Positions 34,450-35,958 of a DNA stretch of 64,000 nucleotides are shown piece by piece. Below the pieces are notes generated by a model. It ran no database searches and was not told the DNA's origin. It saw only the letters and a program-made list of their open reading frames with translations. Within the stretch, counting starts at the first letter, position 1; each line of letters starts with the position of its first letter. Position numbers and translations under genes: made by a program. The stretch lies in assembly GCF_054482595.1 (NCBI RefSeq), contig NZ_CM137008.1. The stretch is one strand, 5' to 3'.

Positions 34450-35958
34450 CTTTATGGATCAACGGTGACTGGGTAACGGGCCAGGGCGCACAGCGCGTGA
34501 AGCGTAATCCGGTATCTGGCGAGGTGTTATGGCAAGGCAATGATGCCGATGCCGCTCAGGTCGGGCAGGCTTGTCGCGCAGCCCGTGCGGCGTTTCCGCG
34601 CTGGGCGCGGCTCTCATTTGCTGAACGTCAGGCCGTTGTCGAACGCTTTGCCGGATTGCTGGAAAGGAATAAAGGCGAATTAACCGCAATCATTGCCCGA
34701 GAAACCGGCAAGCCGCGCTGGGAAGCGGCAACCGAAGTGACGGCGATGATCAATAAAATCGCGATATCAATTAAGGCGTATCACGTTCGTACCGGCGAGC
34801 AGCGTAGTGAAATGCCGGACGGCGCGGCGAGCCTGCGACATCGCCCGCACGGCGTGTTGGCGGTGTTTGGGCCGTATAATTTCCCTGGTCATTTGCCGAA
34901 CGGACATATCGTTCCGGCATTGCTGGCAGGTAACACCATTATCTTTAAACCCAGCGAACTGACACCGTGGAGTGGCGAAGCGGTAATGCGTTTATGGCAG
35001 CAGGCTGGCTTGCCGCCGGGCGTGCTGAACCTGGTGCAGGGCGGGCGTGAAACGGGTCAGGCGCTGAGTGCGCTGGAGGATCTCGACGGTTTGCTGTTTA
35101 CCGGCAGCGCCAATACCGGCTACCAGTTGCATCGCCAGCTCTCCGGTCAGCCGGAGAAAATTCTTGCCCTTGAGATGGGTGGTAATAATCCGCTAATTAT
35201 CGATGAGGTGGCGGATATTGATGCCGCTGTCCATCTGACCATTCAGTCGGCGTTTGTCACAGCCGGGCAACGCTGCACCTGCGCCCGCCGTTTATTGCTG
35301 AAAAGTGGAGCGCAGGGCGATGCATTTCTTGCCCGCCTGGTTGCCGTCAGCCAAAGGTTAACGCCGGGCAACTGGGACGACGAACCGCAGCCGTTTATTG
35401 GCGGGCTAATTTCTGAACAGGCCGCACAGCAGGTGGTTACTGCCTGGCAGGTACTGGAAGCGATGGGCGGACGAACCCTGCTTGCGCCGCGCTTATTACA
35501 AGCAGGGACATCGTTGCTGACGCCGGGGATCATTGAAATGACAGGCGTTGCTGACGCCGGGGATCATTGAAATGACAGGCGTTGCTGGCGTACCAGATGA
35601 AGAGGTGTTCGGGCCGCTATTGCGCGTCTGGCGTTATGACACCTTCGATGAGGCGATCAGGATGGCTAATAACACTCGCTTTGGCCTCTCTTGTGGGCTG
35701 GTTTCCCCCGAGCGGGAAAAATTCGAACAACTGTTGCTGGAGGCGCGGGCGGGGATTGTTAACTGGAACAAACCGCTTACCGGCGCTGCCAGTACCGCGC
35801 CATTCGGCGGCATTGGTGCATCCGGTAACCATCGCCCCAGCGCCTGGTATGCCGCAGATTACTGCGCATGGCCTATGGCGAGCCTGGAGTCGGACTCGTT
35901 AACTTTGCCCGCAACGCTTAACCCCGGACTGGATTTTTCCGATGAGGTGGTGCGATGA
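34446..35958 (+). pseudogene. astD: N-succinylglutamate 5-semialdehyde dehydrogenase gene astD frameshifted by a 34-bp tandem duplication
   Basis: ALDH-family ORF (LEMGGNNP, catalytic QRCTCARR) terminates prematurely (…[17 protein letters not shown]); a second-frame ORF restarts with the same peptide ([18 protein letters not shown]…). Gene span is 1513 bp, that is 1479 + 34. Confidence 0.85.
35518..35585 (+). repeat. Perfect 34-bp tandem duplication (tgacgccggggatcattgaaatgacaggcgttgc x2) inside astD
   Basis: Two identical adjacent 34-mers at 35518-35551 and 35552-35585; 6 bp of flanking microhomology (cgttgc) at the junction. Confidence 0.95.

Follow-up and report, generated by a model that had tools for sequence, protein, structure and literature searches.

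The question raised by this locus is whether a perfect 34-bp tandem duplication inside astD, in the arginine-breakdown operon of E. coli, is a reversible off-switch for the AST pathway, as was proposed in the initial annotation, or simply a broken gene. On the evidence assembled here, the duplication is best read as a commonplace slippage event that has left a pseudogene in a decaying operon, and not as a proven switch. We give a probability of roughly 85% to the following account: a microhomology-mediated (slipped-strand) tandem duplication produced a null astD allele in a single event that has since been inherited clonally, and an amber mutation at a Dcm site of astC was added later, in an AST operon that is now decaying. 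All positions refer to the window, that is, the whole stretch of 64,000 nucleotides that was analysed; the features discussed are collected in Table 1.

Table 1. Positions in the window of the ast genes, of the repeat units in astD and of the private changes
Feature	Position	Strand	Remarks
astC, in-frame amber at codon 193	32198..33418	+	C-to-T change at 32774, in a CCAGG site, giving TAG at 32774-32776
astA, intact, 344 aa	33415..34449	+	
astD N-terminal ORF, 374 aa (369 native residues plus DAGDH)	34446..35570	+	Stop TGA 35568-35570; from translation; exact product (P0001) on 16 contigs
34-bp copy 1 (CGTTGCTGACGCCGGGGATCATTGAAATGACAGG)	35512..35545	+	From repeat finder and script
34-bp copy 2	35546..35579	+	Extra copy relative to XH990 and W619; either copy could be the new one
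8-bp microhomology CGTTGCTG, partial third copy	35580..35587	+	In the ancestral allele, present on both sides of the lone 34-bp unit
astD C-terminal ORF, 128 aa, native frame	35572..35958	+	P0082; matches PF00171; ends at the native stop, overlapping the astB start
astB, intact, 447 aa	35955..37298	+	Start overlaps the astD stop (ATGA)
astE, intact, 322 aa	37291..38259	+	
Private change: 15-bp tandem duplication	1538		
Private change: ydjL synonymous	3679		
Private change: ydjH S62R	7450		
Private change: astC amber	32774		
Private change: astD 34-bp duplication	35512-35587		
Private change: chbC 3-bp in-frame deletion	43211		
Private change: tcyP H96Y	52790		

Tandem Repeats Finder detected a perfect repeat of period 34 at 35512-35587 (2.2 copies, 100% matches, score 152), and a script comparison found the two copies to be identical at 34 of 34 positions in head-to-tail order; the phase-shifted reading, in which 35518-35551 is set against 35552-35585, gives the same identity. 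The two identical adjacent 34-mers that had been noticed in astD were thus confirmed by both means. The period-34 identity runs 8 bp past the second copy, as CGTTGCTG, and the microhomology at the junction is this 8-bp sequence and not the 6 bp (cgttgc) originally described. Since the expectation for a perfect 34-bp tandem repeat in 64 kb is about 64000 x 4^-34, an origin by chance is impossible.

Because 34 is 33 + 1, the duplication shifts the reading frame of astD after residue 369, and the TGA that follows DAGDH is the sixth codon of the new frame, exactly the distance that had been predicted. The C-terminal part is out of frame, as the initial annotation stated, and amounts to 123 residues (370-492) where that annotation had counted about 125; owing to the frameshift and the stop, no unbroken ORF runs through these residues. 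When the duplication was removed in silico, an AstD of 492 aa was recovered, identical to a protein (P0007) that is present on 720 public contigs, and this one-copy form was aligned over its full length with the solved AstD structure 3ju8 of the PDB (E = 3.7e-196). Annotated relatives, solved structures and Pfam all place the gene as AstD by full-length homology, within the astCADBE operon. Alignment to the solved structures puts the conserved EEVFGP segment within the lost part of the protein; the break lies just before EEVFGP, which we take to be a conserved motif of the aldehyde dehydrogenase fold, and inside the catalytic domain. Since the N-terminal fragment is without part of the catalytic domain, we infer that enzyme activity is lost and that the duplication allele is a null, namely a pseudogene.

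The operon that surrounds the lesion is the E. coli astCADBE operon, located between xthA and spy, and its astA, astB and astE genes are identical to the copies in relatives. With one copy of the 34-bp unit taken out, the sequence from 31000 to 39500 is that of strain XH990 save for a single base, at 32774. In RefSeq, 14 complete genomes reach 99% identity or more over the operon, and in every one of these the region is 34 bp shorter than in the window. In the ancestral allele, as seen in XH990 and W619, a single 34-bp unit has CGTTGCTG at both ends. A scan of the operon for promoters and terminators gave counts at or below the expectation from shuffled sequence. AstC and ArgD are reported to be interchangeable in function (PMC3590144).

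The astD/astB portion of the operon, from about 34446 to 37298, is a rare divergent allele: over 35300-35800, 14 of the 5,426 complete genomes are at least 99% identical to the window, and 5,299 of them fall at 90-95% identity. The astD gene differs by 5.3-6.4% from those of two diverged lineages (L010 and L011, described below), compared with 1-3% in the flanks, and because the divergence of astD exceeds that of the flanks, the allele may represent an old recombinant segment, as this pattern suggests.

The exact 374-aa truncated AstD was found on 16 contigs in a collection of 15 billion proteins, and the 128-aa C-terminal fragment on 15. Two of the 16 contigs are longer than 1 Mb and 11 measure 0.2-1 Mb, and the set also includes metagenome contigs in ENA assembled with SPAdes; the carriers comprise, among others, the isolate GCA_958334905.1 and two of these ENA SPAdes contigs. 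In that isolate (L006), 9,125 bp are identical to the window apart from position 32774, and astC is intact; a second carrier (L007), 99.92% identical to the window, likewise has the duplication together with an intact astC; and a third (L009, GCA_029471405.1) has both the duplication and the astC amber and is 100% identical to the window over 10,579 bp. All of the carriers examined share one genetic background. By contrast with this set, none of the 5,426 complete RefSeq E. coli genomes contains the junction (61-bp junction query, best coverage not above 74%), although 3,581 of them carry, at 100% identity, the 45-bp predisposing sequence with both 8-bp repeats. The duplication junction is marked by the k-mer AAATGACAGGCGTTGCTGACGCCGGGGA, and an exact 28-mer across the junction had no match in JGI metagenome contigs. 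The duplication is thus real, is inherited and is limited to a single genetic background. Because the background of all the carriers examined is the same, a single origin with stable inheritance would be the simplest account. A recurrent hotspot was also considered, and is ruled out by the absence of the junction from the 5,426 complete genomes and the JGI metagenomes. A search of the literature for astD pseudogenes or loss of ast in E. coli returned nothing specific.

An 8-bp direct repeat whose copies lie 34 bp apart is a textbook substrate for slipped-strand duplication, and the origin by slippage or microhomology that was suggested at the outset gains support from the presence of CGTTGCTG at both ends of the ancestral unit. 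The locus presents the features expected of such an event: the copies are identical and head-to-tail, the single ancestral unit is bounded by the 8-bp repeat seen at the junction, and the ancestral ORF is recovered without any difference once one copy is subtracted. Nothing sets the site apart, since ancestral astD contains four comparable microhomology pairs (repeats of 8 bp or more, no further than 100 bp apart) and the window about 2 per kb. No special DNA structure that might aid slippage was found, the fold of the 61-nt ancestral region being unremarkable (z = -1.16). We propose that replication mispairing between the two 8-mers of ancestral astD duplicated the 34-bp unit, and that the shift after residue 369 and the early stop would have cost the protein its C-terminal 123 residues, EEVFGP included. 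This would have happened once, in an E. coli sublineage with the rare ast allele, and would have been inherited clonally since then. The null allele may have been fixed by drift, being presumably neutral, or by weak selection; later, in the same clade, deamination at a Dcm site would have changed codon 193 of astC from CAG to TAG. The two lesions of the window would then mark an AST arginine-catabolic operon in decay, under relaxed selection or weak selection for loss.

The astC lesion was absent from the initial annotation. Codon 193 (Gln) has become TAG through the C to T change at 32774; in the ancestral context, ATCCAGGGG, it is the inner C of a CCAGG that has mutated (CCAGG to CTAGG). The inner C of CCAGG is the position methylated by Dcm, and its deamination is a classic source of amber hotspots; Coulondre and colleagues are said to have placed the classic lacI amber hotspots, in 1978, at Dcm (CCWGG) 5-methylcytosines. 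The astC lesion resembles those hotspots in both the CCAGG to CTAGG and the CAG to TAG change, with methylation presumed at the astC site, and the parallel concerns this neighbouring mutation, not the duplication. The same amber occurs on two further astC backgrounds (L010 and L011), so that there are at least three in all; these two have an intact astD and are about 3% diverged, with SNPs flanking the amber on both sides at distances of no more than about 70 bp. Public records of other E. coli and of Shigella flexneri also include C-terminal AstC fragments (208 or 209 aa), whereas the amber was found in none of 5,361 complete genomes. The amber lies about 640 nt upstream of astA and probably has a polar effect on all of the operon.

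As regards the order of events, the duplication most likely came first and the amber second, because in L006 and L007 the duplication is present beside an undamaged astC, on the background of the window; no genome with the amber only was seen on that background. The reverse order is rejected as the less parsimonious, given these astC-intact carriers and given that the amber-only L010 and L011 belong to lineages about 3% diverged. Counts of amber-bearing and amber-free carriers cannot be set against each other, as NCBI's PGAP does not call the pseudogene.

Over its full 64 kb, the window has only seven differences that set it apart from both XH990 and W619 (the private changes of Table 1). Exact variant proteins are present in public data for truncated AstD, the N-terminal fragment of AstC, ChbC with the 3-bp deletion, TcyP H96Y and YdjH S62R, so that planted or odd mutations are rejected and the sequence is taken to be natural. 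The number of contigs per exact protein, which is not strictly comparable across annotation sources, is 44 for YdjH S62R, 22-43 for the AstC fragments, 14-16 for truncated AstD, 2 for TcyP H96Y and 1 for the ChbC deletion. These counts are consistent with a nested, natural clonal genealogy around the astD duplication.

The catabolic-operon pseudogenes of E. coli and Shigella likewise reflect a succession of inactivating hits on a single dispensable operon, and the AstC fragments deposited for S. flexneri end at the same position as that of the window; the ast operon differs in having received two hits so far, with astA, astB and astE still intact. Such a succession could also have been driven by selection. 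The loss of AST would in that case have been favoured in the niche of the lineage, with the astD null selected first and the astC amber afterwards, and we consider this unlikely. Its rationale, which we find equally doubtful, is that the amber would stop the production of N-succinylglutamate semialdehyde, a compound that an astD mutant cannot remove. Both disruptive changes among the seven private mutations in 64 kb sit in the 6-kb ast operon, a null that could have reverted was nevertheless kept, and the astC amber recurs in other lineages. However, two of seven changes in the operon is not a significant excess (P about 0.14, binomial) and is only weakly suggestive of selection, while the Dcm CCAGG hotspot accounts for the recurrence of the amber, which none of the 5,361 complete genomes carries.

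A reversible off-switch fares worse, and we regard it as very unlikely. According to this proposal, the duplication is a revertible OFF state from which one copy is lost precisely at appreciable frequency, as a form of bet-hedging. The closest precedent is that of the microhomology-mediated tandem duplications (MTDs) of S. pombe, which arise at about 1e-6 and undergo precise reversion roughly 100 times as often, at about 1e-4 (PMC8639346), and which are found as fixed insertions in natural isolates too (Dan et al., PNAS 2021, PMC8639346). The astD allele shares with MTDs the ancestral direct-repeat pair, the duplication of the unit between the repeats, inactivation by frameshift and the potential for precise reversion; but MTDs belong to fission yeast, in which reversion was measured, whereas the astD allele behaves like a stably inherited marker of an E. 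coli lineage, known from its sequence. In the astC-intact carriers L006 and L007, reversion would restore the operon. In the window, however, loss of one copy would not restore a wild-type operon, because the astC amber is also present, and the benefit of reversion is cancelled.

The remaining evidence also goes against a switch. The junction is missing from all the complete genomes in spite of the thousands that share the predisposing sequence, all examined carriers are on one background, the allele persisted as other mutations built up, and its site is only one of the comparable microhomology pairs in astD and the window. Phase-variable loci have a hypermutable simple-sequence tract or an invertible element; here there are two copies of a complex 34-bp unit, and the ancestral state is one copy. 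Nor are ON and OFF alleles intermixed or of recurrent origin among the complete genomes, the JGI contigs and the carriers examined. Contingency loci with simple-sequence phase variation do resemble astD in that a slippage-based change of length shifts a coding frame, but astD is without a multi-copy tract of short units and without ON/OFF intermixing among relatives, and it encodes a housekeeping catabolic enzyme, whereas the contingency loci are surface or restriction-modification genes. The proposal of the initial annotation is therefore left unsupported by the counts in complete genomes, the single background and the astC amber. For the astC-intact carriers such as GCA_958334905.1, there is a slender chance that the duplication served as an MTD-type revertible OFF state for bet-hedging, later locked by the amber, or that AstD is made there in two pieces with residual activity.

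The geometry of the junction bears on this last point and on the downstream genes. The new TGA is followed, 1 nt on, by an ATG (35572) in the native frame, as TGAAATG, and gene callers predict from it the 128-aa C-terminal ORF. In the stretch 35556-35574, which the duplication itself created, the RNA reads GGGGA-U-CAU-UGA-A-AUG, in which the restart is preceded by a Shine-Dalgarno-like run. It is plausible that the duplication uncouples the translation of astB and astE, as had been predicted; this predicted effect would be softened, because the native C-terminal frame has a start codon of its own, the ATG 1 nt beyond the new stop, and re-initiation there could keep some translational coupling to astB.

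A functional split or recoded AstD, arising from re-initiation at ATG 35572 or from a +1 shift at CAU-UGA, would yield a pair of fragments that complement each other or, alternatively, full-length AstD with 11 aa inserted, in both cases with activity and coupling to astB partly kept. A two-piece AstD made through TGA-A-ATG could in principle count against the null reading, and the closeness of stop and restart, the GGGGA located 9-13 nt upstream of the ATG and the native-frame ORF are what it has in its favour. The arrangement is also faintly similar to the +1 frameshift site of prfB. We nevertheless hold the split or recoded enzyme to be highly improbable. The break is inside the catalytic domain, just ahead of EEVFGP, and the astC amber that followed in this clade is in keeping with relaxed constraint. 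The window site has no slippery codon: in GGGGA-U-CAU-UGA-A, the P-site codon ahead of the stop is CAU, for which a +1 shift would mean re-pairing from CAU to AUU, and this is poor. Moreover, the site is a derived allele of one sublineage only and is not conserved in homologues. Still less credible is an assembly or sequencing artefact, with the extra copy absent from cells: tandem repeats can in principle be mis-assembled, as the initial annotation had in mind, but no support for this was found, and the identical junction in 16 independently assembled contigs from differing samples and assemblers (NCBI isolates, ENA SPAdes metagenomes, two contigs above 1 Mb) effectively excludes it.

The slippage-type pseudogene has a value that is mainly practical, in that its junction cleanly marks a single clonal sublineage of E. 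coli; it would also predict inability to use the AST pathway, through which arginine and ornithine serve as sources of nitrogen. It shows, in nature, a microhomology-mediated duplication fixed despite possible reversion, and this suggests that the pathway is dispensable in the niche of the lineage; the astD duplication offers neither a new mechanism nor the answer to an open question. A revertible null was kept through clonal diversification and a second null then followed, which argues for AST being dispensable or mildly costly in this lineage.

Two of the other private changes deserve mention. At 1538-1569, in the divergent gapA-msrB intergenic region, there is a perfect 15-bp tandem duplication (two copies of CTCGCCTCACTCTTC), which is absent from all 14 of the closest complete genomes and could alter promoter spacing. 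The deletion at 43211 changes LDASTIETL to LDASIETL in chbC, a chitobiose PTS IIC gene, and the exact protein (WP_458928502.1) is present on one public contig.
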